The position numbers and the translations under genes were made by a program. Positions 12,456-40,752 of a stretch of DNA of 64,000 nucleotides are shown piece after piece (the stretch's first letter is position 1; every line of letters begins with the position of its first letter). The notes beneath the pieces were generated by a model that saw nothing but the letters and a program-made list of their open reading frames with translations, searched no databases and was not told the DNA's origin. The stretch comes from Terriglobia bacterium (GTDB taxonomy: Bacteria > Acidobacteriota > Vicinamibacteria > Vicinamibacterales > CAVVIG01): NCBI GenBank assembly GCA_020073005.1, contig JAIQFX010000007.1, positions 51,712-115,711 of the forward strand, read 5' to 3'.

Positions 12456-12467
12456 AGCACCCTCGTG

Positions 12468-12921: not shown

Positions 12922-12956
12922 TTCCTTCTTCTGCCTTCTGCCTTCTGCCTTCAACA
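12922..12956. repeat. Heptamer array TTCCTTC-(TTCTGCC)x3-TTCAACA
   Basis: Read directly. It spans from the ADH stop (12951-12953) to 8 nt before the Hsp20 ATG. On the mRNA strand it reads (GGCAGAA)x3-GAAGGAAGG and provides the SD. Confidence 0.9.
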
Positions 12957-15014: not shown

Positions 15015-15048
15015 AGCACCAGCCACCAGCCACCAGCCACCAGCCACC
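15015..15048. repeat. Heptamer array CAGCAC-(CAGCCAC)x4
   Basis: Read directly; intergenic, ~50 nt upstream of the arsR-family gene. Confidence 0.9.
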
Positions 15049-19704: not shown

Positions 19705-20160
19705 CTACGACGCGGGCGCGACTTCCCGCTCCTTGATCGTGACGTTGACCGGGATGCCCTGCCGCACGCTTTGCGTGACGATGCAGAAATCCTCGAAGAG
19801 GTGCTCGCAGCGGTCGAACTTCGCCTGGTCGGCGGCATCGAACTCGGGCGCGAGCTCGACGTCGATTCCGCTGATCCGGAACTTCCCCTGCTCGTTCTTC
19901 GCGACGTGCGTGGTGACGTGCGCCGTGACGCCGTCGACGTCGACGCGCGACTTGCGGAGACAGAACGTCAGGCTCGCCGCCAGGCAGTTGCCGACCGCGG
20001 CGCCGAGCATCGCCGCGGCGTTCGGCGCGCGGCCGTCGCCGAGCGGCGCGGGTTCGTCGAACAGAATCGCGGCCGCTTCGGGCACGTCGGGAAACTCGGC
20101 GACGAACTCGTACTTGCGGGCCAGGCTGACGGTCACGTGATGCGCGCGCTCTTCCGACAT
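19705..20160 (-). CDS. OsmC/Ohr family peroxiredoxin-like protein
   Basis: 151 aa from ATG 20160 (GGAGG upstream). Two conserved Cys (GNCLAASL, FEDFCIVTQSV) in OsmC-fold spacing. Confidence 0.8.
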   Translation of the reverse strand: MSEERAHHVTVSLARKYEFVAEFPDVPEAAAILFDEPAPLGDGRAPNAAAMLGAAVGNCLAASLTFCLRKSRVDVDGVTAHVTTHVAKNEQGKFRISGIDVELAPEFDAADQAKFDRCEHLFEDFCIVTQSVRQGIPVNVTIKEREVAPAS

Positions 20161-20208
20161 GGGGCCTCCGAACCAGATCGCTCGCCTGAAAGGCTCGCGC
20201 CGCAACTC

Positions 20209-21423
20209 TTATTGCAGCGACATCGGGACGATCTTCGGGTGCGACGGGCCGCCCGCGCGCTCGCGCTTCGGCGCGGACTCGTCGAGATCGGGCCGATAGG
20301 TGCAGAACGGTTCCTCCGCGAGGAAGGAGCCGGTCGCGGCGAACGCGCGCGCGCGGCAGCCGCCGCAGATCGCCTCGTAGCGGCACTCGCCGCACTTGCC
20401 CTCGTATGCGTCCGGATCGCGCAGCTGCTTGAACACGGTCGAGTTGTCCCAGATGTCCTTGAAGCGCTGCACGCGCGTGTCGCCCGCCGAGACGGGCAGG
20501 TAGCCGCACGGGTACACCGCGCCCTCGTTCGAGACGAAGCAGACGCTCGTCCCCGCGAGGCAGCCGCGCGTCATCGCCGACAGATGCTGATGATGTCCCC
20601 CACCTGCCCCACCGGCCCCTCCATGTCCCATCACGACCGGCGCCGCTTTCGCGCGCGTGCCGGGGGCGATGAAGCTGGACGTCATGTCACCGCGACTCCG
20701 CTCCTCCTCGATCCGCTGCGCGCGGATCCGGTAGTAGTGCGGCGCGCACGTCGCCTTCAGATCGATCGGGCAGTCCTTCGACTGATCGTCGAACCAGCGC
20801 AGCACGCGCTCGTACTCGTCGGCCGGCAGCATCTCGGCCGGCGCGATCTCGAGTCCGCAGCCGACCGGCACGAGCATGAACAGATGCAGCGCGTCGGCGC
20901 CGATCTCGAGCGCGAGGTCGAGCAGTCCCGGCAGTTCGCTGACGTTGTGCTTCGCGATCGTCGAGTTGACCTGGACCGACACGCCCTCGTCCCGGAGATT
21001 GCGCAGCCCGCGCAGCGCGAGCGCGTGCGACCCGGGCAGCCCGCGGAAGCGGTCGTGCGTGTCGGGATTCGCGCCGTCGAGGCTGATCGCGACGCGCGAG
21101 AACCCGGTGTCCGCGATGTGCGCGGCCACGCGCTCGTTGACGAGCGTGCCGTTGGTCGCCAGCGCCATCCGGAAGCCCGACTCGACGCCGTACGCCCCGA
21201 TGTCGAACAGGTCCGGCCGGAACAGCGGCTCGCCGCCCGACAACACGAGCACCGGCCTGGTGACCTCGGCGATCTGGTCGATGAGATCGAACGCGCGGCT
21301 CGTTGTCAGCTCGGTCGGCCCGAGCGCTTTCTGCGGGACGGCGCGGCAGTGCTTGCAGGTCAGGTTGCACGCCTTCGTGGTCTCCCAGAAGACGAGGCGC
21401 AGCGGTGACGGCGTCTGAGTCAT
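20209..21423 (-). CDS. Radical SAM/SPASM protein of the AhbD/NirJ type
   Basis: CNLTCKHC (Cx3Cx2C) in LVFWETTKACNLTCKHCRA. Also GGEPLFRPD, HLFMLVPVGCG and C-terminal SPASM cysteines (CGECRYEAICGGCRARAF). Gly/His-rich insert GHGGAGGAGGGHHQH. ATGA overlap with the feoA stop. Confidence 0.8.
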   Translation of the reverse strand: MTQTPSPLRLVFWETTKACNLTCKHCRAVPQKALGPTELTTSRAFDLIDQIAEVTRPVLVLSGGEPLFRPDLFDIGAYGVESGFRMALATNGTLVNERVAAHIADTGFSRVAISLDGANPDTHDRFRGLPGSHALALRGLRNLRDEGVSVQVNSTIAKHNVSELPGLLDLALEIGADALHLFMLVPVGCGLEIAPAEMLPADEYERVLRWFDDQSKDCPIDLKATCAPHYYRIRAQRIEEERSRGDMTSSFIAPGTRAKAAPVVMGHGGAGGAGGGHHQHLSAMTRGCLAGTSVCFVSNEGAVYPCGYLPVSAGDTRVQRFKDIWDNSTVFKQLRDPDAYEGKCGECRYEAICGGCRARAFAATGSFLAEEPFCTYRPDLDESAPKRERAGGPSHPKIVPMSLQ

Positions 21424-21707
21424 GAAGGGTTCTCCCGCAGCCGCACGAGGACGGCGTCAGCCACGCCGCGCTCGACGGCCAGTTCCGTCTGGTCGCACAG
21501 AAACACGATGCCGGGGAATCGCTGCAGCAGCGTCACGCTCGCGCCGGGCGTCACGCCGAGCGACAGCAGCCGCTCGACGCTTGCCTCGCTCACGGGATGC
21601 GCGCCGCGCACCTGGCGCACTTCGACGATGACGCCCTGCGCGCCTTCGGCGAGCGACGACAGCGCGACGCCCGCGCTAGAACTGAACGCCAAGTGCACGG
21701 AGGACAT
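21420..21707 (-). CDS. feoA: FeoA-family protein
   Basis: 95 aa. SH3-like FeoA pattern (EGAQGVIVEV...RLLSLGVTPGASVTLLQRFPG..VFLCDQTELAVER). Overlaps the feoB 3' end by 32 nt. Confidence 0.8.
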   Translation of the reverse strand: MSSVHLAFSSSAGVALSSLAEGAQGVIVEVRQVRGAHPVSEASVERLLSLGVTPGASVTLLQRFPGIVFLCDQTELAVERGVADAVLVRLRENPS

Positions 21708-23403
21708 AGTTCAGCCCCGCTCCCGTGAAAATCGCGATCGGCGTGATGACGCCGATGATCGCCAGACCGGTTCTCAGCCCGCGCTCGCGGACCATCATCA
21801 GGAAATTCGCCACGCACGGCACGAAGAGCGTCATGACGGTGAGCGCCACGACGGCCTGCACGCCCGTGAGCTGCCCGCTGTGCGCGAGCTGGAACAGCCC
21901 GGCCGCGCCGTAATCGCGCCGCAGGAATCCCATCACGAGGATCTGCGCCGTCGCGGGCGGCAGACCGAGCAGGCCAGTGACGATCGGACGTCCGGCCGCC
22001 GACAGCCATACGAGCGCGCCCACGCGATCGAGGACGAATAGCAGCACGGTGCCGATCAGGAACAGCGGCACGGCCTCGCCGAGGTACCACCACACGCGCA
22101 GCCGCGTCTTCGTCAGCAGATTGCCGACGCGCGGCCACCGGATCGGCGGCAGCTCGAGGATGAATTCCGATCGCTCGCCCTTCAGCACGCGCGCCGCGAG
22201 CCAGCCCACGAGAATCATCTGGCCGATGACGACGCCGAAGAGCGTCGCCAGCGCGGCGAACGAAATGCCGCCGAGGATGCCGAGAATCGTCGCCAGCTGC
22301 GCCGAGCACGGGATGCCGAGCGCCAGCAGCAGGATCGCGATCAGGCGCTCCTTCGGCGTCCCGAGAATCCTCGTCGTCATCGTCGCCATCGTGTCGCAGC
22401 CGAGGCCGAGCACCATCGGGAGGACGGCCTTGCCGTTCAGCCCCATCGTGCGGAAGATGCGGTCGCAGAAGATCGCGAGGCGCGGAATGTAGCCGCTGTC
22501 CTCGAGGAAGCCGAACATCAGGAAGAATGTCGCGACGACCGGCAACACGATCGCGATCGAATACGTCACGCCCATCGTGATGAGCCCGTACTCGCCGACG
22601 AAGAAATCGCGCACGAGCGGAAACGGCACGAAGCTGAAGAGCCATGTCGAGGCGGGGTTGACGCCGCGGCCGAACACGCCGTCCTCGAGCAGCTTGACCA
22701 GCGTCTGCGCGCCGAAGACGCCGACGAACAGATACAGCGCGTAGAGGACGACGGCGAGAATCGGCAGGCCCGTCAGCGGCCGGCGCGTCGCCCACGCGAG
22801 CGCTTCCTGGACGCGGGCGAGCGACAGCGTGCTGACGTGGCGGACGCGCGTCGTCAGCGCGTGCGCCCACTCGGCGCGCGCGGCGGCGCTGGCGTGCGCC
22901 GCCGGCGGCAGCTGCGGCACGGCGGCCCGGACGAGCGCGTCGCGCAGCTCGGCCAGTCCGCGTCCTTCGACGGCGACCATCTCGACGACCGGAATCCCGA
23001 GCTCGGCCTCGAGCGCGCGCGCGTCGACGACGATGCCGCGCGCGAAGGCTTCGTCCACCATGTTGAGCGCGAGAATGGTCGGCTTGCGGAACGTCGCGAT
23101 CTGTCCGGTGAGCATCAGCGCGCGACGGAGATTGCGCGCGTCGGCGATCTGCACGACGAGATCGGCCCGGTCGGTTTCCAGCACGTCGCGGGTGATGCGC
23201 TCGTCTTCGCTGACCGTGCCCTCGAGCGCGTTGACGCCCGGCGTGTCGATGACGTCGCAGACCTCGGCGCCGACGAGCGCGCGGCCCTGGGTAATCGCAA
23301 CGGTCGTCCCGGGATAGTTCGAGACGGTGACGTACCGGCCCGTCAGGCGGCCGAAGACCACGCTCTTGCCGACGTTAGGCTGGCCCACGAGCGCGATCCG
23401 CAT
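21676..23403 (-). CDS. feoB: Ferrous iron transporter FeoB
   Basis: G-domain MRIALVGQPNVGKS..YPGTTV..DTPG from ATG 23403, then a polytopic membrane domain. An alternative start at ATG 23472 would add a His-rich MSCHIAHEH leader. Confidence 0.9.
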   Translation of the reverse strand: MRIALVGQPNVGKSVVFGRLTGRYVTVSNYPGTTVAITQGRALVGAEVCDVIDTPGVNALEGTVSEDERITRDVLETDRADLVVQIADARNLRRALMLTGQIATFRKPTILALNMVDEAFARGIVVDARALEAELGIPVVEMVAVEGRGLAELRDALVRAAVPQLPPAAHASAAARAEWAHALTTRVRHVSTLSLARVQEALAWATRRPLTGLPILAVVLYALYLFVGVFGAQTLVKLLEDGVFGRGVNPASTWLFSFVPFPLVRDFFVGEYGLITMGVTYSIAIVLPVVATFFLMFGFLEDSGYIPRLAIFCDRIFRTMGLNGKAVLPMVLGLGCDTMATMTTRILGTPKERLIAILLLALGIPCSAQLATILGILGGISFAALATLFGVVIGQMILVGWLAARVLKGERSEFILELPPIRWPRVGNLLTKTRLRVWWYLGEAVPLFLIGTVLLFVLDRVGALVWLSAAGRPIVTGLLGLPPATAQILVMGFLRRDYGAAGLFQLAHSGQLTGVQAVVALTVMTLFVPCVANFLMMVRERGLRTGLAIIGVITPIAIFTGAGLNYVLRALGVQF

Positions 23404-23563
23404 CGGGCGCGACCGAAGCGTGAGGGGCCGCGACGCGGCGGCAGCGTGCTCGTGGGCGATGTGGCAGGACATGGTCAGTTGGTCGGCAGTCGGAGTCAGT
23501 AGTCCGTAGGCAAGGGGGATGCCGGGAGGAATCGGGGTGTTTTCCTGTGGATCTGTCCAGGTC

Positions 23564-23591
23564 ACTGGTGGCTGGTGGCTGGTGGCTGGGG
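23564..23591. repeat. Heptamer array (CTGGTGG)x3-CTGGGG
   Basis: Read directly. It is the reverse complement of the CAGCCAC family at 15015-15048 and lies upstream of feoB. Confidence 0.88.
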
Positions 23592-23749: not shown

Positions 23750-23791
23750 CAGCTGAGAGCTGACAGCTGTCAGCTTTCAGCTGTCAGCCCT
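23750..23791. repeat. Heptamer array CAGCTGA-GAGCTGA-CAGCTGT-CAGCTTT-CAGCTGT-CAGCCCT
   Basis: Read directly. It ends immediately before the stop codon (tta 23792-23794) of the barrel gene and is partly self-complementary. Confidence 0.88.
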
Positions 23792-26047
23792 TTACCAGAG
23801 ATACGTGAACCTCCCCCAGAACGTGTTCGCCGAGTACGGCCGGTAGTAGTTGCCCATCGTCATCAACGCCGGCGACGCCGTCGCCGGGAGCGCCAGGCTC
23901 GGCTGCGGTCCCAGCGCGAAGTCGGCCACGTCGTACTTGTCGTACCAGTAGACCACTCCGATCGCGACGTGCTGCGTGAGGAAGTACCGCGCGTCCACCG
24001 TGCCGCGCTGCAGCTTGTTGGTGATCGGCGCGAGTTGCGTCGGCGCCACCACCAGCGTCTGATTGGGCTGCACGGCGTAGACGTAGGTCGACTCGCCGTT
24101 GCTGAGGCTGTAGCTCGTCTTCACTTCCGTCTTCGGGATGAGCTTGATCAGATCGATCGAGGCGTCGAGCGTGTGCACCGTGTCGCCGCTGTTGTCTGTC
24201 CAGTCGCGCCGCGGATCGTTGAACGTCTGCGTCGGATCCGCGAGATAGGCCAGCGTGTTGGCCGGGAGCGGATTCGACGTCCGCGAGGCCTGCAGCGCCG
24301 TGTACTTCTCGTAGCCGTAGTTCACGCCCATCGACACCTTGTCGATCGGCTCGAAGTCGGCGCCCACCGAGTAGACGTGGTTGTCGTTGTTGCGGAGACC
24401 GAACGTCGTCCCCGGATAGTCTTCCTTGCCGATGCCGGCTGACGCGTTCACGGAGAACTGCGACACCGGCTGGACGAAGATGATGCCGCGGAAGCTGTCC
24501 TTGTCGCGGTCCGCGATGTCGAACTGCCGCAGCCCGGGCTGCTCGCCGAGGTCGAGCAGGGTCTGGAGATCGAACCCCGACCCGACGCGCTTGCTGTGTT
24601 CGTAGACCCCGCGCAGCGTGAGCCAGCCCACGCCGGTGAGATCCGCCGAGACGCGGCCGGTGTCCTCGACGCTCGAGTCGATCATGCGGCCGACTTCTCC
24701 GTTCGACGGGTTGGCGAAGTCCATGCCTTCCCGGGTGTAGCCCGCGCGGAACGCGACGAACTTGAACGGCGTCACCGACGCATCCGCGTCGAACGTGCGC
24801 TTGGTGAACCCGAGGAGCTCGGCGTTCTCGTTCAGCGCGACGATGGACGTGTCGTAGTTGACGCCGTTGCCGACGTGGAACGGATTGGACCGGTTGTCGT
24901 ACTCATGCTGCCGGTACCGGGCGTTGAACCACAGGTAGTTGGTCGGCCGCGACGTGAAGTTGTAGTTCATCGACGTCACGCGCGCGGTGAGATCCGCGTT
25001 CGTCCGGTCGAGCGTCGGCGACACGAGCGCCGTGTTGCTGGTGAACGGCAGGAGCGGCGTGTTGTTGGTGATGTTGCTGATCGAGAGATACCCGGTGGCG
25101 CGGCTGTGCGCCGGCAGGTTGATCGCGGCGAGCGCGCTGCCGGTGTTGACGTTGTTGTTGGGCGCGCCGGCCAGGCGACCGAACGCCGGGCCCGCGGTGG
25201 GCGAATCCGAGACGCGCAGCGGGTTGTCGACGCTGAGCGACGGGAGGTTGTTGCGGAAGAACGATCCGTCGTAGCCCAGCTTCGCGAGGCCGCGGTCGTT
25301 CGACCACTGCATCGACGCGCCGAACTCGGTGGTCCGCTGATCGAGCGGCGCCGCAAACTCGCTCGCGACCGCGCCGCTGATCCCGTAGCTGATGGCGTAC
25401 GGCTGCGCGCCCGTCCGGTCCGAGTTCCGGAAGAACACGCTGAAGTCGACGCTCTGCGTCGCGTTGTAGATCAGGTTGAAGGCCGCGTTGTTGCGCTTGG
25501 CCTGAAGATCGAACACCGATCCGGTGGTCACGGCGTTGACCAGCGACGTCGTCTTGTTCTGCAGCCCCGTTTGCAGGCTGTCAGGCAGCACGAGGACGCC
25601 GGGCGAGGTCGAGCTGTAGAGGGTCTGCGTGTCCTGGCTGTAGAACAACGGCACCTGGTTCCAGTCGAAGGTCGCCTTCACGTTGCCGTAGTTGTTGTAC
25701 GCCGCCGAGAAGCTCTGATCGCGGTAGCCGATGTGGTTCGCTTCGAACCTGAAGCGGTACTCGCTGGTGTCCTTCGAGAACTTCATCAGGTCGATCGTCC
25801 CGCCGTCGCGCATGTCGCGATAGCGCTGGAACCGCGCCTGATCCGAGTCGCTGCCGAAGGTCGTCGTGCGAAGCCCGAAGTCGATCTGGTTGACCAGCGG
25901 AATGTCCGGAATGCCGGTCGACACGGCCGTCTTCGGCACGTCTTTCTGTTCGTTCGGGTCGCCACCCGATGGTTCCTGCGCCCTCACTCCTGCAGCCGTC
26001 AGCAGGAGTGCGGCGGCCATGACGAGATGTCTGGTGCGCATGTTCAT
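23792..26047 (-). CDS. Outer-membrane beta-barrel, MtrB/PioB family-like (decahaem-associated porin)
   Basis: 751 aa. Signal peptide ...AAALLLTAAGVRAQE, alternating aromatic/polar beta-strand pattern throughout, C-terminal ...FWGRFTYLW. Lies 10 nt downstream of the decahaem gene. The second ATG (26041) has better GGAGG spacing. Confidence 0.8.
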   Translation of the reverse strand: MNMRTRHLVMAAALLLTAAGVRAQEPSGGDPNEQKDVPKTAVSTGIPDIPLVNQIDFGLRTTTFGSDSDQARFQRYRDMRDGGTIDLMKFSKDTSEYRFRFEANHIGYRDQSFSAAYNNYGNVKATFDWNQVPLFYSQDTQTLYSSTSPGVLVLPDSLQTGLQNKTTSLVNAVTTGSVFDLQAKRNNAAFNLIYNATQSVDFSVFFRNSDRTGAQPYAISYGISGAVASEFAAPLDQRTTEFGASMQWSNDRGLAKLGYDGSFFRNNLPSLSVDNPLRVSDSPTAGPAFGRLAGAPNNNVNTGSALAAINLPAHSRATGYLSISNITNNTPLLPFTSNTALVSPTLDRTNADLTARVTSMNYNFTSRPTNYLWFNARYRQHEYDNRSNPFHVGNGVNYDTSIVALNENAELLGFTKRTFDADASVTPFKFVAFRAGYTREGMDFANPSNGEVGRMIDSSVEDTGRVSADLTGVGWLTLRGVYEHSKRVGSGFDLQTLLDLGEQPGLRQFDIADRDKDSFRGIIFVQPVSQFSVNASAGIGKEDYPGTTFGLRNNDNHVYSVGADFEPIDKVSMGVNYGYEKYTALQASRTSNPLPANTLAYLADPTQTFNDPRRDWTDNSGDTVHTLDASIDLIKLIPKTEVKTSYSLSNGESTYVYAVQPNQTLVVAPTQLAPITNKLQRGTVDARYFLTQHVAIGVVYWYDKYDVADFALGPQPSLALPATASPALMTMGNYYRPYSANTFWGRFTYLW

Positions 26048-26057
26048 CCTCCTGCCG

Positions 26058-27053
26058 CTACCGAAGGAAAAAGTTGCCCGCGGGGCTGTTCGTCCCGTGG
26101 ATCTGTGAATGACAGTTGACGCAGCCGCGTCCCACGAGCCGGTTGCTCGCGCTGGTCAGCTGCACGCCGTCGTAGATGGTCGCCGGGTGCCGGCTGCTGA
26201 TGTGGCAGCGCTGGCAGAGCATCGGCGCCTTCGCGACGAGCATGCGGTCGTTGTTCGACCCGTGCGGATCGTGGCAGCTCGCGCAGTTCTCGCGGCCGGC
26301 CGAGTGCTCCCAGAGGAACGGGCCGCGCTTCTCGGCGTGGCAGCTGGTGCACGCTTCGTTGAGCGAATTGCCCGTCTTCAGCATCCGCACGTTGGTCGAT
26401 CCGTGCGGGCTGTGGCAGGACGTGCATTCCATCTTGCCTTCGCGCAGCGGCATGTGCCCCGACTTCTTGACCTTCATCGCTTCCTGTTTGTGGCAGGTCT
26501 CGCAGGTCTGCGTGGCGGACACGGTCTTGAGCTGCGCTTTCTCGGACTTGAAGCTGTGGACGCTGTGGCACGAGGTGCACGACACGTTGCGCGCGTCGTG
26601 CATGCTGCCCTGCCACTCGGCGTGCGCGCCCTTGCTGTGGCACGTCAAACACGTGGCGTTCACGTCGCGCGGTGACAGCGCGGCGAAGACCTTGATCTTG
26701 GACTTCTCGCCGCTGTCGACATGCGCCTGGCCCGGGCCGTGGCACGACTCGCAGGTCTGCCCGTTCTTCGCGGCCGGCGTGCGCGAATCCTGCGACTTGC
26801 CGTGCAGCGACTTGTGCATGCCTTCGCTTTGCGATTGGTGACAGTTGGCGCAGGTGTCGTCGCCCACGTAGCCCGTGGTTTGCGCGCCTGTCGAGGACGT
26901 GGTGGACGCTGCGTTCGCGCGTGCGGCCGCACCGTTCGGTTGCCCGGTGGCGGCGTGACCGCTGGCGGCGGCCACCCCGATCGCCATCGTGCACACAAGC
27001 GCGAATGCGGTCACCAGCCATCTCGCCGGGGAACCGTCATTTCGTCTGGACAT
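26058..27053 (-). CDS. Periplasmic decahaem c-type cytochrome, DmsE/MtrA/PioA/MtoA family
   Basis: 331 aa from ATG 27053 (signal MSRRNDGSPARWLVTAFALVCTMAIGVAAASGHA). Ten CxxCH motifs. C-terminus CVNCHSQIHGTNSPAGNFFLR is typical of the family. Confidence 0.88.
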   Translation of the reverse strand: MSRRNDGSPARWLVTAFALVCTMAIGVAAASGHAATGQPNGAAARANAASTTSSTGAQTTGYVGDDTCANCHQSQSEGMHKSLHGKSQDSRTPAAKNGQTCESCHGPGQAHVDSGEKSKIKVFAALSPRDVNATCLTCHSKGAHAEWQGSMHDARNVSCTSCHSVHSFKSEKAQLKTVSATQTCETCHKQEAMKVKKSGHMPLREGKMECTSCHSPHGSTNVRMLKTGNSLNEACTSCHAEKRGPFLWEHSAGRENCASCHDPHGSNNDRMLVAKAPMLCQRCHISSRHPATIYDGVQLTSASNRLVGRGCVNCHSQIHGTNSPAGNFFLR

Positions 27054-27211
27054 GATGAAAACGCTCCCGTGTTGAATGCCGTCGACTATCCGGCAAGATG
27101 GCCGGATGGTCAGACGGGAGTGCACGGGAGGTGCCAGCGCCGGGGCTGAACGCTGAGGAAATACGCGCAGGGAACAGAGCACTAAGAGCTTAACGCTCCA
27201 CTCTGTGGGGA

Positions 27212-27332
27212 GCTTTCAGCTCTCAGCTATCAGCTGACAGCTGTGACCCGCGTCGCGAAGGCGCTGGAGCCCACGAAGAAAATGCTTTCAGCTCTCAGCT
27301 ATCAGCTGACAGCTGTGACTGACAGCTGTCAT
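27212..27332. repeat. Two 36-nt direct repeats (GCTTTCAGCTCTCAGCTATCAGCTGACAGCTGTGAC) separated by 36 nt, each built of GCTNNCA heptamers
   Basis: Copies at 27212-27247 and 27284-27319 are identical. The second continues as TGACAGCTGTCAT to 27332. Located in the 284-nt spacer between the ImcH-like and decahaem genes. Confidence 0.9.
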
Positions 27333-27337
27333 CCGAC

Positions 27338-28708
27338 TCATTCGATCTTGTGGCAGGTCTCGCAGTCCTGACCGATCGTCTTCCCGTCCTTCGCCTTGTG
27401 ATTGTCGTCGTGGCAGCGGAAGCAGCCCGGGAAATCCATGTGGCCGATGTTGTTGGGGTAGGTCCCGAACTGCACGTGCATTTCGGGGAACACGTTGCGC
27501 CGGTACGCGCGATCCGTGGCGGCGACGGCTTTCTCCACATCCTGCCGCCGCGTCATGTACACATCCGAGAACTGCGTCCGGTAAAAATCCCGCAGCGCGC
27601 GGGAAATTCCCTCCGTCGCGGCGTCCTGCGTCGCGTACGAGGCCTTGAGCGCCTTGACGGTTTCGCGGCGCACGAACGGCAGCGTCTTGGGCACCTCGTC
27701 GCGCGACATCATCTCGTTGACGGCGCGCTCTGGCGTCGCGGCCATCGGATGGCTCGGCCGGTTGTGACAATCCATGCAGTCCATCCGCCGCCGCTCGCCC
27801 TTGGCGAGTTGATCGGGCGTCGTGCCCACGGCGGTGTACTCGCGGACGTTGCCGAAGCGATCCTTCACGCGCACCCACGGAATCACCTGGCGCTTGTCGT
27901 CGGTCGCGATGTACTCGACTTCGTTGGCGACGTTCATGTGCCAGTGGATGCCCTGCGCGATGCCCAGGCGCTCGCTGCCGCCGCCGACGTGCACTTGAAT
28001 CGTCGTCACCGACTCGGTGTTCTTCTCGTCCTCGCCGTACTCGAAGACGCGGCGGATCTTGTCGCCGTGGAATTTCTCCGGCCAGTGGCACTGCTCGCAG
28101 ACCTCGCGCGCCGGACGCAGGTTCTGCACGGGCGACGGAATCGGCCGCGAGTACGTGTTGAGCGTGACGGCGAACACCTGGCGCGTGCCGGACACTTTCG
28201 AGCGCGCGAACCACGACGCGCCGGGCCCGATGTGGCACTGCACGCACGTCACGCGCGAGTGCGGGCCGTCCTGATACGCGATGAACTCGGGCTGCATCAC
28301 GCCGTGGCAGACCTGCCCGCAGAACTGCACCGAGTCCATGTACTCGACGCCGCGGTACGCGGCGAGCGACACGATGACGATGTTGGCGAGCGTGAGCGCG
28401 AAGATCAGGATCGTCGCGCGCCGCTGCAGCGGATCGTTCAGATCGAGCCTCGGCCAATGGAGCTCGTTGGCGGGCCGGCCGCGGTGGCGCCGCCGGCGCT
28501 CGAGCCACACGCCGAGGGGAATGAGCGCGAGGCCGAAGAGGAACACGCCCGGCAGAATGAGAAAGAAGATGATGCCGCTGTACGGGTTCGTGTGCAGTCC
28601 GAAGAGATCGGCGAGGAAGACGACGAGGAACACGACGGCGCTGACGGTCGTCAGCACGATGCCAGCGACGGCAACGGGGCTTCGCAACGGACGCAGGTCT
28701 CGAGCCAT
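27338..28708 (-). CDS. Membrane-anchored multihaem cytochrome, NapC/NirT-related (ImcH-like architecture)
   Basis: 456 aa. Three N-terminal TM helices, then five CxxCH (CVQCH, CEQCH, CMDCH, CFRCH, CETCH) plus one CX3CH (CGQVCH). Confidence 0.8.
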   Translation of the reverse strand: MARDLRPLRSPVAVAGIVLTTVSAVVFLVVFLADLFGLHTNPYSGIIFFLILPGVFLFGLALIPLGVWLERRRRHRGRPANELHWPRLDLNDPLQRRATILIFALTLANIVIVSLAAYRGVEYMDSVQFCGQVCHGVMQPEFIAYQDGPHSRVTCVQCHIGPGASWFARSKVSGTRQVFAVTLNTYSRPIPSPVQNLRPAREVCEQCHWPEKFHGDKIRRVFEYGEDEKNTESVTTIQVHVGGGSERLGIAQGIHWHMNVANEVEYIATDDKRQVIPWVRVKDRFGNVREYTAVGTTPDQLAKGERRRMDCMDCHNRPSHPMAATPERAVNEMMSRDEVPKTLPFVRRETVKALKASYATQDAATEGISRALRDFYRTQFSDVYMTRRQDVEKAVAATDRAYRRNVFPEMHVQFGTYPNNIGHMDFPGCFRCHDDNHKAKDGKTIGQDCETCHKIE

Positions 28709-28745
28709 TCGGCGGTGTCTCCGCGGTGAAGGCTTCCGGGCGAGT

Positions 28746-29645
28746 TTACAGCAGGACCGCGTACAGGATGAGGCCGATCAGCCCGATGCCCAGCGTCAGG
28801 CCGATGGTCCCCACTACCCAGCCGCGCGTGACTGCCGCGGCCTCTGGTGCGGCCGCGCCGCACGAGGCCAGCGTTCCCGCCTGCAGCAACCGATCGTATT
28901 CCGCGGCGCGCTCGTGACGCAGGTCGTCCACGGGCATCGTGCCCGTGAAGATCACGAGGTCCATCGGAAATTTTTCAGGCCGTAGGTGTCCGTTGAAGAA
29001 GTGCACGACGAAGATGAAGCCGATCGCGAGCGACGCTTCGGCGCCGTGCACGAAGAGCGCGATGTTGAACATCCACCCCGGCAGAATCCGCGAAGCGGCG
29101 ACGGGGAACCAGAGGATGAGGCCCGCGGCGCCCATCAGCGCCGTGCCCCAGAGGACGGCCCAGTAGTCGAACTTCTCCCAGTACGTGAAGTGCTCGAACT
29201 TCGGCCGCGGGCCGAGGCCGGCGAACCATTTCATCATCCCGAAGAAGTCGACGACGTCCCGCGGCTGCGGCACCATCGAGTTCGGCCCCCAGAAGAGCCC
29301 CGTCTCGCCGCGGACGAAGGCGCGCCAGAATACGTCGCCCACGTGCCAGACGACGGCGCCGAGCAGCGCCGCGCCGAAGACGCGGTGCACGAGCCCCGCG
29401 CCGTGGAAGCCGCCGAACAGGCTCGCGAGCAGCTGCGCCCACGCGGCTTCGCTGAACAGCAGCGGCAGCCCGGTCGCCGCGAGGCCGAGGAACGTCGTCA
29501 TGATGACGACGTGCAGCCAGCGCGTGCGCGCGTCGAAGCGCCGCACGTGTGCGGGCGCGGGCGCCGGCGCGGGCCCCGCCGCGAATGGCGCTACGGGCGC
29601 GCGGCGATCCTGGAGCTCCGCCTGTTCCAGCGTCACGGTCGTCAT
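28746..29645 (-). CDS. b-type cytochrome, FdnI/HydC (Ni/Fe-hydrogenase b-type cytochrome) family
   Basis: 299 aa from ATG 29645 (ATGA overlap with the nonahaem gene stop). At least 5 TM helices with conserved His (RWLHVV, HRVFG, LFVHGAEA, VVHFFNGH). Confidence 0.78.
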   Translation of the reverse strand: MTTVTLEQAELQDRRAPVAPFAAGPAPAPAPAHVRRFDARTRWLHVVIMTTFLGLAATGLPLLFSEAAWAQLLASLFGGFHGAGLVHRVFGAALLGAVVWHVGDVFWRAFVRGETGLFWGPNSMVPQPRDVVDFFGMMKWFAGLGPRPKFEHFTYWEKFDYWAVLWGTALMGAAGLILWFPVAASRILPGWMFNIALFVHGAEASLAIGFIFVVHFFNGHLRPEKFPMDLVIFTGTMPVDDLRHERAAEYDRLLQAGTLASCGAAAPEAAAVTRGWVVGTIGLTLGIGLIGLILYAVLL

Positions 29646-30649
29646 CGCCCTCTCTCCTTGCCATTCCGCCTCGAGCGCCAGAACCACAGCAGGCTGTGCA
29701 GGCCGAAGAAGCCGAAGCAGCCCGGGATCAGCACCCAGTAGAACCGGTTCGCCCACCACAGGATCGCGCCGCGCTTGTAGTTCTGCGGGTCCGGATGCGG
29801 GTCGTACTTCACGAAGCGCTCGTTCGAGCCCGCGTGACACTTGCCGCACGTCGCGACCAGATGCCCGGACGAGATCGTCGACGCCGGGTTCGAGGCCGGC
29901 AGGATGTCGTGCGCGCCGTGGCAGTCGGCGCACGCGGCGACGCGCGTCGAGCCGAGCTGATTGACCTTCCCGTGGAACGTGCGCTCGAAGGAGGCGACGA
30001 CGCCCGCATGGCACGTGCCGCATTCAGCGGTGAGGCCGAGCCGCCAGGCGGTCGTGTCGGCGCGCTGAATCGTGTGGGCCGTGTGGCAGTCCGAACACAC
30101 GGGCGCGTTGGACTGGCCCTTCTTGAGCGCGACGGCGTGGATGCCGGCGTCGTACTTCTGCTTGATGCCCGCGTGGCACGAGCCGCACGTCGACGGGATG
30201 TTCGCGCGCGCGACGCGCGACGCGGCGTCGGTCTTCTTCAGGATGTCGTGGCGGCCGTGGCAGTCCGCGCACGCCGGCGCGGCGGCGGTCAGGCCGGCCT
30301 TCTCCTTCGCCCACGCGTGAATGCTGTCGTGGTACTTGGAGCCGATGTCGTCGTGGCAGCTCGCGCATGCGACCTTCGCGAGCGTGTCGGTGTGCGGAAA
30401 CTCGGTGAGCTTCGCGAGATCGGCGTGGCAGTCGACGCACGCCATCGGGCCGTGCGTCGATCCCTCGAAGCGCTTCGCGTCGACCGCGATCGTGCGGCCG
30501 TCGGCGCGTTTCGCGTCGGCGTCGCCGTGACAGGCGAGGCAATCTTCGTTCGCCGGAGGTTTGGGAGCGGCCTGGGGAGACTGTCCGGCAGCGGCGGCCG
30601 TGGAAATCAGGCCGACCGCTGCCACAGTGAGGGCGAACCGAGTCCACAT
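29642..30649 (-). CDS. Nonahaem c-type cytochrome with C-terminal TM helix (CbcL-like c domain)
   Basis: Nine CxxCH motifs (CLACH, CVDCH, CASCH, CADCH, CGSCH, CSDCH, CGTCH, CADCH, CGKCH). Signal MWTRFALTVAAVGLISTAAAAG from ATG 30649 (the ORF extends to GTG 30679). C-terminal hydrophobic helix WVLIPGCFGFFGLHSLLWFW. Confidence 0.82.
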   Translation of the reverse strand: MWTRFALTVAAVGLISTAAAAGQSPQAAPKPPANEDCLACHGDADAKRADGRTIAVDAKRFEGSTHGPMACVDCHADLAKLTEFPHTDTLAKVACASCHDDIGSKYHDSIHAWAKEKAGLTAAAPACADCHGRHDILKKTDAASRVARANIPSTCGSCHAGIKQKYDAGIHAVALKKGQSNAPVCSDCHTAHTIQRADTTAWRLGLTAECGTCHAGVVASFERTFHGKVNQLGSTRVAACADCHGAHDILPASNPASTISSGHLVATCGKCHAGSNERFVKYDPHPDPQNYKRGAILWWANRFYWVLIPGCFGFFGLHSLLWFWRSRRNGKERGR

Positions 30650-30690
30650 ACGTCGAGTCTCGGCGCTCGCGGCACGCACTGGCGACGCTG

Positions 30691-31014
30691 CTACTTCAGC
30701 GACGTCAGATACGCCACGAGCGCATCCACGTCATCTTTGGGCAACGCGTAGGCTTTCATGTCCGGCTTCCGCGTGGTCTTCATCTTCGCGGTCATGCCTT
30801 TCGCGTCGGTGATCCAGTTGCGGATCTCGTCGGCGGATCGCTTGCTGCCGACCGAATCCAACGCGCCCTTCGCATTGCCCTTCCCGGCGACGGAATGACA
30901 GAGCGAACATTTCTGATCCGCGTAGACCTTCTCGCCTTTCGCCTTGGCGTCTTCCGCCGACGCGAAAGAAGCCACTCCCGCACACAACATGACTGCCAGC
31001 ACGAGTGATCGCAT
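30691..31014 (-). CDS. Class I monohaem cytochrome c (MtoD-like position)
   Basis: 107 aa. Signal peptide, a single CSLCH, and a distal Met region (KPDMKAY). Confidence 0.82.
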   Translation of the reverse strand: MRSLVLAVMLCAGVASFASAEDAKAKGEKVYADQKCSLCHSVAGKGNAKGALDSVGSKRSADEIRNWITDAKGMTAKMKTTRKPDMKAYALPKDDVDALVAYLTSLK

Positions 31015-31226: not shown

Positions 31227-32431
31227 TCATCTCGGCACGCGTCGACGGAGATCGGTGAACCAGTTCTCGACGAGCGCGATCTCGTGGAGCGACTCGGGTT
31301 CGGCTGGCAGAATCATCGCGAAGCGCCGACCGTCTGGAGCGACGTCGAAGTCGATGCCGGTTCCACCGCCCAGCCCGACCCCGCCCGTCATGTACGGACC
31401 TTTGAACAGGGGACGGCCGCGGGTGGCGGTCAGTTCTCTTCCAGTGCCGATCTGGATGGCCATCATTTGATCGGCGTTGCGATAGAACAGCGTCCGGCCG
31501 TCTCGTGACCAGATGACGGCGTCCCCACCGCCGGTGGAGATTTGCCGTTTCGCGCCCGCATCGGGAAATTGCCTCAGGTACACCTCATTCCGTCCTGATT
31601 CGCTGCTGACGTATGCGATCCATCGCGAATCGGGAGAGAGCTGCGGATGCGACTCATCGAACCGCGTCTGCAGAAACGGCTGCGCCGCCTGGCCTGATTC
31701 CCGGTTCAGCATCCAGACATCAAAGCCCGTACTGGGATCCCGTTGCGTGAACAACAGCAGGCGACCATCTCGAGACCACGAACCAGGCTGTTGTGCGAAG
31801 TTGCTCGTCGTCAGTCTGCGCACGTCGCCCGTGCCGTCGGCTGCCTGCAGGAAGAGACCAGGCTGACCGTCGCGGTTCGACCCGAACGTGACGTATGCGC
31901 CGTCGGGCGTCCAGATCGGATAATTGTTGTCCCATGCAAACGTCAGTCGCGTGAACGCGCACGCCGCCAGGTCGCAGGCCCACACATGATTCGTGGCTCC
32001 GTCTACTGCGACCGCAAGCCGACCCCCGTCAGGCGACAGGCGCACGTACACGTACCGGCGGCGCTCATCCGAAATGGCTTCTGCTCGTCCGTCGCGATCG
32101 ACCCACACGAGCTGCCGTTCGGGACTCGGCGCTCCGCCTGCCGCGTAGATCAGCGAGCCCTCATCCGACACGCTGAAATTCGCGGTTCCGGTCGCCGATA
32201 TCGTCGACACGTGCTCCACAACGGAGACCGGCGTCCCGTTGACACGCAGTGTCGCCAGATCGAACGGCCCGGCCAGCAGCGAGCCCGCGCGACCGTAGAT
32301 CAGCTGGCCGCTCGTCGCGTACCGCGCGTCGGTCGCGTGTCACGCGCTCGATAGACCTCGCCCATCCCTCCGGCGCCGAGCGGCGCAAGGATCTCATACG
32401 GGCCGAGATGAACGCCCACGGAGACCGGCAC
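31227..32431 (-). pseudogene. Remnant of a Ser/Thr protein kinase with a TolB-like beta-propeller (internal deletion plus frameshift)
   Basis: The GTG 32431 frame gives VPVSVGVHLGPYEILAPLGAGGMGEVYRARDTR (kinase Gly-loop), then stops after 10 more codons. A different frame, with no start codon, continues as TDARYATSGQLIYGRAGSLLAGPFDL... through a ~365-aa WD40-like/TolB-type C-terminus ending at 31227. Confidence 0.65.
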
Positions 32432-32465
32432 GAACTTGTCTTCGTTGTCTACTGCGCGGGTCCTC

Positions 32466-32507
32466 CGACCAACGACCAACGACTAACGACTAACGACTAA
32501 CGACCAT
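32466..32507. repeat. Heptamer array (CGACCAA)x2-(CGACTAA)x3-CGACCAT
   Basis: Read directly. It is the reverse complement of the 2491-2525 family and ends 3 nt before the stop codon of the FAD subunit gene (32511-32513). Confidence 0.9.
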
Positions 32508-32510
32508 CCA

Positions 32511-33503
32511 TCAGCCGCGAATCGCGCGCTGCACGAGGTTGCGCGTCAGCGCCACCTTGTACGTGTTGTGGCGCAGCGGTTGCGCGCCCTTGATGGCGAG
32601 TTCGCCGGCGAGCGTCGCCGTGGCCGCGTCGCGCGGCTTCCCGCGCACGGCGTTCTCAACCTCATGCAGCCGCCTCGGCCGCGCCGCGACGGCGTTCACG
32701 ACGAGCCGGATGTCGCGGATGATGCCGTTCGACATCTTCATCGCCGTGGCGATGTTGACGAGCGGAAAGTCCCACACCTTGCGATCCCGCACCTTCTCGA
32801 ATTGGAAGTGGGCGCCGGCCCACGTCGCCGGCACGCGAATCGCCGTCAGGAGGTCGCCCGCGTCCAGGATTGTCATCCGCGTGATGTCGATGTCGGGTCC
32901 GAGGAAGTAGTCCTCGGCCGCCACGACCCGTTCCCCGCGCGACGACCGCACGACCATCTGCGCGTCGAGCGCGACGAGCGCGGGCGCGGTGTCCGACGGG
33001 TTGACGGCCACGCAGCGATCGAGATCGAAGATCGCGTGCTCGCGGTTGACCGCCGTCGGGGTGTCCGCGAAGCAGGAATTGCCGCCCGCGCGGTAGCACG
33101 TCCACCCGCTGCGGTAATACCAGCAGCGCGTCGACTGCGAGACGTTGCCGCCGAGGGTGCCCTGATTGCGGATCTGCGGCGAGCCGACGGCGCCCGCCGC
33201 GCGGGCCAGGACGGCGAACTGCGACTGCACGATCGGATGGCGCGCGATCTCGGCGAGCGTCGTCATCGCGCCGATCTCGAGTCCGCCGCCCACCTCGCGG
33301 ATCCCCTGGAGCTCCGCGATGCCGCCGAGATCGACGAGCGCCGCCGGCTGGACGACGCGATCCTGGAGCGCGTCGAACGTGTCGAGGCCGCCGCCGAGGA
33401 TCCGCGCGGCCGCGCCGTGGCGACCGATGAGCGCGAGCGCCGCGTCCACGCTCGTCGGCTGGAACAACTCGAACGACGGCATCGAGCCGCGAATGACAGC
33501 CAT
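32511..33503 (-). CDS. XDH/CODH-family FAD-binding (medium) subunit
   Basis: 330 aa. FAD_binding_5 pattern (ILGGGLDTFD, GGLEIGAMTTL, IRNQGTLGGNV) and a CO-dehydrogenase flavoprotein C-terminal domain. Confidence 0.85.
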   Translation of the reverse strand: MAVIRGSMPSFELFQPTSVDAALALIGRHGAAARILGGGLDTFDALQDRVVQPAALVDLGGIAELQGIREVGGGLEIGAMTTLAEIARHPIVQSQFAVLARAAGAVGSPQIRNQGTLGGNVSQSTRCWYYRSGWTCYRAGGNSCFADTPTAVNREHAIFDLDRCVAVNPSDTAPALVALDAQMVVRSSRGERVVAAEDYFLGPDIDITRMTILDAGDLLTAIRVPATWAGAHFQFEKVRDRKVWDFPLVNIATAMKMSNGIIRDIRLVVNAVAARPRRLHEVENAVRGKPRDAATATLAGELAIKGAQPLRHNTYKVALTRNLVQRAIRG

Positions 33504-33536
33504 TCCTAATTCCTAATTCCTAATTCCTAATTCTGA
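33502..33536. repeat. Heptamer array (ATTCCTA)x4-ATTCTGA
   Basis: Read directly. It starts within the ATG (33501-33503) of the FAD subunit gene and fills most of the 46-nt spacer to the large-subunit stop. On the mRNA strand it reads (TTAGGAA)n, i.e. repeated AGGA. Confidence 0.9.
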
Positions 33537-33549
33537 TGACTGCGGGCAC

Positions 33550-36147: not shown

Positions 36148-36148
36148 G

Positions 36149-36745
36149 TCAGCTCCTCCGCGCGTGCTCTGCGGCGCTCATCATGGCCGTCAGGATCTTG
36201 TCGTAGTCCTGACAGCGGCACAGGTTGCCCGCGATGCCTTCGGCCAGCTCGTCGCGGGTCGGGCTCGGATTCGTCTTCAGAAAGCCGACCGTCGCCATGA
36301 TGAAACCGGGCGCGCAGAAGCCGCACTGGAAGCCCTGCTGATCGATCGCGGCCTGCTGCACCGGGTGCAGCGCGCCAGTGGGCGACGCGAGTCCCTCGAT
36401 CGTCGCGATCTGCCGGCTGCGCACCGAGTGCGTGAGGACCGAACACGAGTAATGTGGAACGGCGTCGATGAGGACCGTGCAGGATCCGCACTCGGCCCGC
36501 TGGCATCCGACTTTCGTGCCGGTCAGCCCCAGCCGGTTGCGCAGCGTGAGCGCCAGCGTTTCCTCTTTGGGTACGTCCACGTGCCGGAGCTGGCCGTTGA
36601 CGTTCAGGGCGAGCAGCCGCTCGGCCGCGCCGGGCGCCGGCGCCTGTCCGAGCGCCGCGCCGCTGTTGCGGAACAGGTAGCTGGCGGCGGAAACCGTGGC
36701 GCCGCCTGCGATGGCGCCCTTGATGAAACTGCGCCTCGAAACCAT
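36149..36745 (-). CDS. XDH-family [2Fe-2S] small subunit with Tat signal
   Basis: 198 aa from ATG 36745. Tat motif SRRSFIKGAIAGG; plant-type and second 2Fe-2S motifs (CQRAECGSCTV, QCGFCAPG, CRCQDY). Confidence 0.88.
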   Translation of the reverse strand: MVSRRSFIKGAIAGGATVSAASYLFRNSGAALGQAPAPGAAERLLALNVNGQLRHVDVPKEETLALTLRNRLGLTGTKVGCQRAECGSCTVLIDAVPHYSCSVLTHSVRSRQIATIEGLASPTGALHPVQQAAIDQQGFQCGFCAPGFIMATVGFLKTNPSPTRDELAEGIAGNLCRCQDYDKILTAMMSAAEHARRS

Positions 36746-37005
36746 TGGACGACCCCTCTCGTTCGGCAACGGCTGCCGGGCAACCGGCGAAATGACGCGG
36801 TGACTGGAGCGGTTGCGGAACTCGTGCAACTGCCGCACCAGCAGCGCACGCCGGAAAACACATCACGATTTTCCAACGTCGCTCGCGCGATCCACGCTCG
36901 TGCCGAGATCGCGGCACAGTCGTTGCGAGTCGCATTGGTGCGAGACCGGCAGGCACGCAGAGCAACACACTCTGCAACCTCCGCGTGCCCCGCAGTTGAC
37001 TGGCT

Positions 37006-40712: not shown

Positions 40713-40747
40713 TTGAACCCTGAACCCTGAACCCGGTACCCTGAACC
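40713..40747. repeat. Heptamer array (TGAACCC)x3-GGTACCC-TGAACCC
   Basis: Read directly. It ends 5 nt before ATG 40753 and is the reverse complement of the array at 41994-42028. Confidence 0.9.
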
Positions 40748-40752
40748 CGCGC

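Follow-up and report, generated by a model that had tools for sequence, protein, structure and literature searches.

How could a soil acidobacterium connect its quinone pool with the outside of the cell, and which way would the electrons run? The question is raised by six adjacent genes, named here g1 to g6 in order of transcription, on a stretch of 64,000 nucleotides (nt) from a Terriglobia bacterium of the Vicinamibacterales (assembly GCA_020073005.1, contig JAIQFX010000007.1, positions 51,712 to 115,711); this whole stretch is referred to as the window. A preliminary description, made from the letters of the window alone, had read the genes as a porin and decahaem cytochrome conduit combined with inner-membrane cytochromes resembling ImcH and CbcL of Geobacter. 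We find that the parts list, as assigned by sequence, spans the quinone pool to the outer membrane and is shown to make up a complete predicted envelope-spanning electron path; outward (possibly reversible) electron transfer is its probable use, in which our confidence is slightly better than even. The cluster is not a new kind of machine, because every component falls in a described family and annotation pipelines already name the porin and the decahaem cytochrome. It is the combination of known families in this wiring that is undescribed in the literature we searched, where we found nothing linking Vicinamibacter* with MtrA, MtoA, decahaem or ImcH.

The outer-membrane conduit

The 751-residue g6 product had been proposed as an MtrB/PioB-like barrel, and profile, sequence and structure comparisons all bear this out. 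Residues 67-751 match positions 3-635 of 635 of PF11854 (MtrB_PioB) with 289.9 bits (cut-off 23), and homologues of g6 are annotated as MtrB/PioB family by the Joint Genome Institute; with the NCBIfam subfamily model TIGR03509 the score is 231.6 bits, which falls 8 bits short of the 240.05 required for the subfamily name. In the PDB the g6 sequence retrieves the MtrB chain of the solved Mtr complex (6r2q_B, E = 5.9e-10). The AlphaFold2 model, based on 36 homologues (predicted local distance difference test score, pLDDT, 71.5) has 26 long strands as in MtrB, so the predicted barrel is not too small to hold a cytochrome. With this model as query the top Foldseek match is again 6r2q_B (E = 1.3e-28, template modelling (TM) scores 0.71/0.81), and the runners-up are 22-strand TonB receptors with TM scores of ~0.39-0.42 at most.

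The g5 product, which ends in ...CVNCHSQIHGTNSPAGNFFLR, was described at the outset as a decahaem cytochrome of the DmsE/MtrA/PioA/MtoA type. This assignment stands: it scores 253.7 bits against TIGR03508 (above the cut-off of 192.2) and matches the MtrA chain 6r2q_A over residues 60-329 (E = 5.1e-62). The gene lies upstream of the porin gene in 48 of 48 related contigs with room for it, and in the window the two are 10 nt apart. From these matches and the barrel model, g5 is the predicted wire threading porin g6. An MtrC/OmcA-type surface decahaem, which the preliminary description had likewise reported as lacking, is not encoded in the window (no further cytochrome has more than five haems), nor does an MtrC-type surface cytochrome adjoin g5-g6 in ~100 related loci. 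Because no such gene was found, the conduit takes the two-component MtoAB/PioAB form, that is, MtrAB without the MtrC cap. Two pentahaem genes near the hydrogenase genes of the window were considered as the missing surface cytochrome and rejected; their products are small (~270-350 residues, five haems), and they are hydrogenase-linked, not conduit-linked.

The ImcH-family cytochrome g4

Homologues of ImcH are defined by three N-terminal helices, an adjacent atypical CX3CH motif and five to nine CX2CH motifs (Zhong & Shi, PMC6295460). The g4 product had been likened to ImcH for its three transmembrane helices, NapC/NirT-related region and multiple haems, and it agrees with Geobacter ImcH (GSU3259) position by position when the two are compared by published motif, helix and residue numbers. 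Its CGQVCH motif is at 130 and its CxxCH motifs are at 155, 204, 311, 429 and 449, and those of GSU3259 are at 132, 157, 206, 312, 429, 449 and 487 (Table S3 of PMC6295460, corrected by calibration on OFW24447.1, the 455-residue protein of our locus L011, on which the CX2CH entries are one residue low). Hydropathy places the g4 helices at 14-32, 45-63 and 98-116, compared with the published 13-35, 45-67 and 100-122 (PMC6295460). The two proteins are therefore collinear in their motifs, with g4 ending at residue 456, before the position of the seventh haem, which is absent. Such six-motif short forms are catalogued as ImcH homologues in Anaeromyxobacter, Geothrix, Gemmatimonas and Rifle Acidobacteria (PMC6295460).

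Identity values agree with this placement. Over residues 1-456, g4 is 63% identical to the gene product of the catalogued homologue OFW24447.1; to ImcH homologues other than this one the values are 44-50%, including 49% to the catalogued Zixibacteria RBG-1 protein (EQB63199.1, L022) and 44-48% over ~8-455 to the seven-motif forms of loci L039, L045, L059 and L065. The residues highlighted around haem 1 of Geobacter ImcH (E127, K173, Q179 and Y188) have their counterparts in g4 at D125 (a change of E to D), K171, Q177 and Y186, using published numbering and the -2 offset fixed by motifs 1-3. Among 30 g4 homologues D125, K171 and Q177 are invariant and Y186 is at least 90% conserved. An NrfH-like region, also reported for ImcH in published work, is detected by TIGR03153 (48 bits) and by PDB chain 2j7a_C (E = 1.4e-4); the predicted model of g4 is poor (pLDDT 52, haem domain unfolded) and unfit for a fold search. 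By sequence, then, g4 is a six-haem ImcH-family, NrfH-like quinol/quinone-interacting cytochrome for which menaquinol oxidation is predicted.

The paired subunits g2 and g3

The preliminary description took a nonahaem cytochrome c and an FdnI/HydC-type cytochrome b for a CbcL divided over two genes. The g3 product matches PF01292 (31.5 bits) and gave 2222 matches in a search of 1.8 billion protein representatives. Its full length aligns, at 38-48% identity and E values down to 1e-72, to the last ~270 residues of multihaem fusions of 540-1126 residues, whose N-terminal parts carry 3-22 CxxCH motifs; stand-alone proteins of ~280-360 residues are also matched. In 86 fused proteins g2 (~44-345, with its helix) and g3 (~34-299) match consecutive segments, g2 being 28-43% identical to the N-terminal part. 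The split point is the loop after the first helix of the fused homologues, with g2 corresponding to the haem domain and first transmembrane helix, and g3 to the second to sixth helices, of CbcL/MtoC/MtrH-type proteins. Because of this end-to-end collinearity we assign g2 and g3 to that family as a predicted two-subunit member, in which a nonahaem c subunit contributes one helix and a dihaem b subunit five. The single-polypeptide architecture of CbcL is not seen, its content being shared between the two genes.

Comparison with GSU0274 (Geobacter CbcL), MtoC and MtrH used published lengths and haem positions as fingerprints. Haem spacings in g2 are 34, 24, 32, 28, 30, 25, 30 and 28, and in MtoC they are 37, 23, 53, 31, 31, 25, 30 and 28; the last five in g2 are close to those of MtoC/MtrH (31, 31, 25, 30, 28), whereas Geobacter CbcL has 24, 29, 28, 43 and 28. 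The earlier proposal thus holds for the family but not for the Geobacter haem spacing, which is replaced by a nearer likeness to MtoC/MtrH of Gallionella, Dechloromonas and Rhodoferax. Fused relatives include proteins with CbcL-like (P0278, P0326) and with MtoC-like (P0371, P0294) spacing. In g3 the histidines H45, H87, H200 and H215 are 98-100% conserved among 90 homologues and follow an FdnI-like dihaem pattern, two helices supplying one each and a third supplying two; the C-terminal helix of g2 is rich in aromatic residues. A sequence search of the PDB with g3 gave no match, and the names obtained for its fused homologues from a cluster look-up were all generic (such as "cytochrome b subunit of formate dehydrogenase"), with neither a Geobacter nor a Gallionella accession among them.

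The monohaem cytochrome g1

PF00034 (44.8 bits) and a single CxxCH motif confirm g1 as a class I monohaem cytochrome c. MtoD, with which it might be compared, is bis-His ligated; g1 contains only one His, so His/Met ligation is expected and the ligation of MtoD cannot be shared. No chain named MtoD was among the PDB matches of g1 even at E ≤ 10. On its sequence g1 is an ordinary class I cytochrome c, and the analogy to MtoD is one of position and role only. A g1 homologue precedes the cluster in most relatives.

Gene order and the g4-g5 spacer

All six open reading frames lie on one strand (Table 1), and their GC content at third codon positions (GC3), 0.80-0.91 in a window of ~67% GC, marks them as coding. 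Gaps, overlap and C-termini are as first reported: the intergenic distances from g1 to g6 are 11 (or 41), -4, 37, 284 and 10 nt, where the larger first value applies if g2 starts at an alternative ATG at 30649, and the negative value is an ATGA overlap at 29642-29645 between g2 and g3, which are in different frames. The 25-26 c-haem sites first estimated agree with a motif count of 25 CxxCH and one CX3CH.

Table 1. Coordinates of the cluster and adjoining features in the window
Feature	Position	Strand	Description
g1	30691-31014	minus	Periplasmic class I monohaem cytochrome c with signal peptide; 107 residues, one CSLCH
g2	29642-30679	minus	Nonahaem cytochrome c with C-terminal membrane helix; 345 residues, 9 CxxCH
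g3	28746-29645	minus	Dihaem b-type membrane subunit, FdnI/HydC fold; 299 residues, PF01292
g4	27338-28708	minus	ImcH-family inner-membrane cytochrome, six-haem short form; 456 residues, CX3CH + 5 CxxCH
g4-g5 spacer	27054-27337	minus	284 nt, two exact 36-nt copies; (AGCTGNN)n heptamer array
g5	26058-27053	minus	Periplasmic decahaem cytochrome, DmsE/MtrA/MtoA/PioA family; 331 residues, 10 CxxCH
g6	23792-26047	minus	MtrB/PioB-type 26-strand outer-membrane beta-barrel; 751 residues, ends FTYLW
Heptamer array	23750-23788		(CAGCTGA)n directly after the g6 stop; family D1, inverted pairs I2-I3
feoB	21676-23471	minus	With feoA: PF02421, PF07670, PF07664, PF04023; TIGR00437, 358.7 bits
feoA	21420-21707	minus	Fe(II) uptake gene, overlaps feoB
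Radical SAM/SPASM gene	20209-21423	minus	AhbD/NirJ-like; ATGA-coupled to feoA

The spacer between g4 and g5 contains an exact 36-nt direct repeat (27212-27247 and 27284-27319; none expected by chance) and folds as RNA far better than shuffled sequences do (z = -6.5). Because an Rfam scan of the whole window matched no family, the structured spacer does not correspond to a known RNA, and in relatives its length varies over ~32-235 nt. No terminator-like site lies inside it. A scan for promoters and terminators was uninformative on co-transcription, with no promoter-like sites and with terminator-like sites no commoner than in shuffled sequences. The g5-g6 pair is bracketed by related (AGCTGNN)n arrays, one after the g4 stop and one after the g6 stop.

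Conservation and distribution

We surveyed related loci with a scan centred on ImcH (one genome per species, best 80 loci, all of them metagenome-assembled genomes, MAGs) and one centred on the porin (80 metagenome contigs, with counts restricted to contigs with room). Almost all of the scored candidates from soil metagenomes, 7999 of 8000, match g4 (E ≤ 0.001); the best 120 are 77-94% identical, and named sources are Acidobacteria or Vicinamibacterales. The porin evolves faster (55-68% identity). A look-up of the exact g6 sequence gave no record, which means that the window is not itself among the sequences surveyed. The cluster is common in soil Vicinamibacterales, not rare.

A CbcL-type gene sits directly beside imcH in 44 of the 80 genome loci, from Acidobacteriota, Nitrospirota and Binatia. 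By a same-frame, no-stop test the fused form accounts for 33 of the 44 (Terriglobia, Blastocatellia, Binatia, Nitrospirota) and the split form for 11; the Vicinamibacterales-type loci (L005-L021) are all of the split kind. The conduit genes g5-g6 join the imcH/CbcL pair in a subset only (L005, L008, L020, L021, L026, L045 and L065); linkage of ImcH to MtrAB is found further afield in two MAGs, one of Nitrospirota (L045) and one of Acidobacteriaceae (L065), both confirmed by Pfam and both with a seven-haem ImcH. Seen from the porin, imcH is upstream of the conduit in 18 of 31 contigs and convergent with it in 4 more; ImcH is the commonest inner-membrane partner of the conduit. The full set g2-g3-g4-g5 is present in 7 of the 18 contigs with enough room.

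The synteny survey proposed with the preliminary description shows the gene order kept in many independent contigs. The order seen in the window, including feoB, feoA and the radical S-adenosylmethionine (SAM) gene, recurs in at least 10 contigs; it runs from g1 to the radical SAM gene in L002/L003, L089, L093, L095, L111, L126 and L147, and the g1/g2-to-g6 part is found on the shorter contigs L090, L094, L098 and L103. Alternative layouts are g1-imcH-g5-g6 and g1-g5-g6. A survey of ImcH published in 2018, the one systematic survey of this protein, had found no mtrAB or mtoAB beside imcH and tied ImcH to Geobacter-type reducers (PMC6295460); the Rifle genome from that survey (L011) has g1-g4 and no conduit nearby, which may explain this result. 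Tandem decahaem-porin duplicates also occur: two pairs follow imcH on an 857-kb contig (L001, 11468-18107), where each of the two porins is annotated in several pieces, owing either to frameshifts or to errors of assembly, and others are in L087 and L124.

We consider it very improbable that the six genes came together by accident, or are remnants in decay, and have no joint function. The repeat-bearing spacer of 284 nt and a 320-nt gap between g6 and feoB could divide transcription units, and a pseudogene-like kinase/PD40 remnant lies just upstream; however, all six frames are intact with coding-type GC3, g2 and g3 are ATGA-coupled, and g4 homologues on hundreds of contigs are 77-94% identical. 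The same gene order in many independent MAGs and soil metagenome contigs argues against a chance juxtaposition.

Linkage to iron uptake and hydrogenase genes

The cluster was first described as lying next to Feo and an uptake hydrogenase. This is correct for Feo, which is immediately downstream; the hydrogenase is 13-18 kb downstream in the window, and inside the cluster in some relatives. Between g6 and feoB is a 320-nt gap with hairpins. feoB lies downstream of the porin in 23 of 46 metagenome contigs with room, and also in L002-L005, L008 and L021. The radical SAM gene that follows feoA scores 438.9 bits against TIGR04545 (cut-off 500) and 347.5 bits against TIGR04053 (cut-off 395), below both. 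It comes directly after imcH in L006 and in many Terriglobia loci without g5-g6-feoBA, suggesting that its role, in haem-related maturation, belongs with ImcH and not with Feo. The conduit and Feo look like one insert or block, because L006 has imcH followed by the radical SAM gene without g5-g6 or feoBA. As an immediate imcH neighbour the radical SAM gene is kept in many Terriglobia and Vicinamibacterales (L006, L025, L030-L032, L034-L036, L040 and others).

This linkage bears on whether the conduit serves mainly reductive iron acquisition and not respiration, through a low-flux extracellular reduction of Fe(III) in minerals or chelates after which FeoAB would import Fe(II); the iron so acquired could supply a metabolism rich in haem and iron-sulfur (FeS) clusters. 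We think this unlikely. It would account for the fixed order g6-feoB-feoA-radical SAM in the 23 of 46 contigs, for the translational coupling of feoB, feoA and the AhbD-like haem-related gene, and for the behaviour of g5-g6-feoBA as one insert between imcH and the radical SAM gene (L006 compared with the window), and it has parallels in the Shewanella arrangement, where mtrCAB adjoins feoAB (PMC8805035), and in Geobacterales operons of MtrAB-like genes and ABC transporters, which have been interpreted as metal uptake (PMC11492766). Yet half of the conduits have no adjacent feoBA, the hairpin-bearing gap separates g6 from feoB, and two dedicated quinone-pool modules together with hydrogenase linkage resemble a respiratory investment. 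A Fur-box search gave one weak match far from feoB, at chance level.

Some relatives have genes for uptake [NiFe] hydrogenases at the cluster: in L001 and L004/L005 these separate g3 from imcH, in L045 they follow imcH, and in L026 they follow g6. The nested sets in L001 (5362-9560) and L004/L005 (~5450-9650) consist of small and large subunits, a cytochrome b and a HycI-type protease. In the window, at 5393-12467 and 60-2495, are a Hyb-type (hydrogenase 2-like) operon for small, FeS, NrfD-like membrane and large subunits, HypF further on, and two pentahaem cytochrome c genes (10505-11560 and 11640-12467) that precede the operon and recur in L089 and L126.

The neighbourhood of hydrogenase, CbcL-type and imcH genes could also reflect a redox loop, with the two inner-membrane modules as its arms and not as quinol oxidases in parallel, in which g2/g3 would take electrons from periplasmic donors (hydrogenase-linked cytochromes) and reduce menaquinone on the cytoplasmic side, and ImcH would re-oxidise menaquinol on the periplasmic side and feed the conduit, with a proton-motive force as the result. 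The pairing of a CbcL-type gene with imcH in 44 of the 80 loci suggests that the two work together, g3 keeps the four-His FdnI-like ligand set, ImcH has been described as electroneutral with protons released to the periplasm, and pentahaem cytochromes precede the hydrogenase genes. Nevertheless such a loop is deduced only, and we rate it as quite unlikely: by genetic evidence CbcL of Geobacter acts as a quinol oxidase when acceptors are of low potential, a b subunit is already encoded with the nested hydrogenases, and layouts with ImcH alone exist.

Direction of electron flow

Outward flow is favoured because of the known role of ImcH, the hydrogenase linkage and the Feo linkage, the last of which Shewanella mtrCAB also shows. 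ImcH of Geobacter oxidises menaquinol when the acceptors are extracellular, and the 2018 survey found members of its family in Fe(III) reducers only (PMC6295460). If electrons do flow outward, dehydrogenases, including the uptake [NiFe] hydrogenases nested in or near the cluster in relatives, would make menaquinol, which ImcH would oxidise at the periplasmic face and which the g2/g3 complex may oxidise likewise. From periplasmic haems the electrons would reach the decahaem inside the porin and then acceptors outside the cell, which may be Fe(III), Mn(IV) or humic substances, and the resulting Fe(II) could be imported by the FeoAB encoded immediately downstream. Each of the two inner-membrane modules may cover a potential window of its own, as is the case for Geobacter ImcH and CbcL, and the system may also run in reverse.

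Several points weigh against outward transfer. The direction, whether metal reduction or Fe(II) oxidation, is not readable from sequence, as the preliminary description had already cautioned, and the 284-nt structured spacer could interrupt co-transcription. No surface cytochrome accompanies the conduit in the ~100 loci, which leaves contact with insoluble minerals unexplained, and feoBA is absent beside half of the conduit contigs. In Fe(II) oxidisers the known conduits of the MtrAB type (MtoAB, PioAB) lack MtrC, and MtoC, the nearest protein to g2/g3 in haem spacing, is a proposed quinone reductase in such organisms. Finally, His/Met class I cytochromes c are usually of high potential; g1 is probably of this type, which would suit uptake towards an oxidase better than a low-potential multihaem relay, and Geobacter ImcH does not interact with the high-potential monohaem PccH.

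The opposite reading is a Mto-like uptake of electrons, with Fe(II) or mineral oxidation by the decahaem in the porin; electrons would then run via g1 to a terminal oxidase (downhill) and via the MtoC-like complex and/or ImcH to quinone (uphill). We regard this as possible but doubtful. A monohaem c with MtoC-like, MtoA-like and MtoB-like proteins is also what mtoDABC encodes in Gallionella capsiferriformans ES-2 and Dechloromonas aromatica RCB, there is no MtrC, the g2 spacing is nearest to MtoC/MtrH, g1 is a His/Met class I cytochrome, and FdnI/HydC-type b subunits belong to a family that normally reduces quinone. Against uptake, the most constant inner-membrane partner is ImcH, which is known only as a quinol oxidase and was found in reducers alone; the nested hydrogenases and the linked feoBA agree better with electrons leaving the cell and Fe(II) arising nearby; and g1 is not detectably related to MtoD. 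The outward, uptake, iron-acquisition and redox-loop readings overlap, and the likelihoods we give them do not sum to one.

In the fullest version of outward transfer, soil Vicinamibacterales may carry a self-contained and possibly H2-fuelled module that joins a CbcL/MtoC and ImcH menaquinone loop to an MtrC-less conduit and FeoAB capture; we give this only a small chance. If true, iron and humic substances in ordinary soils would be redox-cycled by a widespread and hitherto overlooked route in the Vicinamibacterales, which are regarded as aerobic heterotrophs. More generally, ImcH here regularly accompanies an MtrAB-type conduit, in one of the most abundant lineages of soils, and the cluster is a testable candidate for redox reactions of iron and humic compounds outside the cells of bulk-soil Acidobacteria. 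Nature has here combined an ImcH-type with a CbcL-type module, so that the cluster can be used to ask if the two replace or assist each other.

Other genes and repeats in the window

Directly upstream of g1, at 31227-32440, is a broken Ser/Thr kinase with a PD40/TolB-like beta-propeller, probably a pseudogene; its kinase N-terminal motif is at ~32420-32340 and its frames are interrupted. Further upstream on the same strand, 32511-36862 encodes a three-subunit enzyme of the xanthine dehydrogenase/CO dehydrogenase family (flavin adenine dinucleotide, molybdopterin and 2Fe-2S subunits, the last with a twin-arginine translocation (TAT) signal). On the minus strand at 43239-48683 is an alternative-complex-III-like or molybdopterin oxidoreductase set with a monohaem c, a pentahaem c, a TAT-signal molybdopterin subunit, a 4Fe-4S subunit and an NrfD-like membrane subunit. 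An OsmC-like gene lies at 19705-20205, next after the radical SAM gene; the same position in L002 (18268-18717) and L003 (14419-14868) is held by a MamS/MamX (magnetochrome-type) domain protein.

Tandem arrays of a 7-nt unit (four to six copies, with the unit differing per site) are present at many gene junctions, typically just past stop codons. They are at 29-67, 2490-2530, 7102-7147, 12928-12952, 15017-15048, 23565-23589, 23750-23788, 27211-27331, 32466-32506, 33502-33533, 40714-40748, 41993-42022, 42732-42764 and 63367-63396, and look like a genome-wide intergenic feature.

Comparison with known systems

Mtr-type conduits have been described in other Acidobacteriota, in Acidobacteriia/Bryobacterales clusters known as Group 5 (PMC8805035) and EET2 (bioRxiv 10.64898/2026.05.27.727921). 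Those of Group 5 are MtrCAB clusters with no inner-membrane quinone oxidoreductase nearby (PMC8805035), and the 2026 peat preprint likewise reports different acidobacterial clusters containing MtrC-like proteins (bioRxiv 10.64898/2026.05.27.727921); the present cluster, in contrast, lacks MtrC and has two inner-membrane modules. Shewanella MtrCAB with CymA (6R2Q) shares homologous MtrA and MtrB proteins and an adjacent feoAB; it differs in having MtrC/OmcA, in using the one-helix tetrahaem CymA where the present cluster has a three-helix six-haem ImcH-type protein, and in lacking the additional b/c complex.

The inner-membrane modules compare with proteins of Geobacter sulfurreducens. g4 resembles ImcH in its three helices, the CX3CH motif after the third, the collinear motifs and the K, Q and Y residues around haem 1, without the seventh haem, and g2 and g3 together have the nine haems and six-helix dihaem b content of CbcL (GSU0274), with different haem spacing in g2. 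Geobacter CbcBA, as described, also pairs a multihaem c protein carrying a C-terminal helix with a separate dihaem b subunit, although CbcA has seven haems and CbcB four helices. The Geobacter genes are scattered, and their products supply conduits of the Pcc/Ext type and nanowires instead of a porin of the MtrAB type. Adjacency may not be unique to our cluster, as ImcH and CbcL of Desulfuromonas acetexigens have consecutive accession numbers, hinting at neighbouring genes.

Two-component conduits of a decahaem and a porin without a surface cytochrome are also encoded by pioABC of Rhodopseudomonas palustris TIE-1 and mtoDAB-cymA of Sideroxydans lithotrophicus ES-1. The present cluster differs from pioABC in having no high-potential iron-sulfur protein (PioC), and g5 (331 residues) lacks the long N-terminal extension of PioA. 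Sideroxydans has a NapC/NirT-superfamily inner-membrane partner, as here, and was the system to which the layout was first compared; the Mto-type content is indeed shared, but the partner there is CymA and here ImcH. The best published match to the layout is instead mtoDABC of Gallionella ES-2 and Dechloromonas RCB, because the haem spacing of g2 resembles that of MtoC/MtrH. An mtoC or mtrH gene beside mtoAB or mtrAB and mtoD is already known (Shi et al. 2012; PMC6295460, PMC5566968), and mtoDABC shares with our cluster a monohaem c, the nonahaem CbcL homologue MtoC, MtoA and the porin MtoB, without MtrC. It differs in that the MtoC equivalent is here split and an ImcH gene is placed between it and the conduit, that g1 is not detectably MtoD-like, and that feoBA and hydrogenase genes are linked, in a host that is a heterotroph-type soil acidobacterium and not a betaproteobacterial Fe(II) oxidiser.

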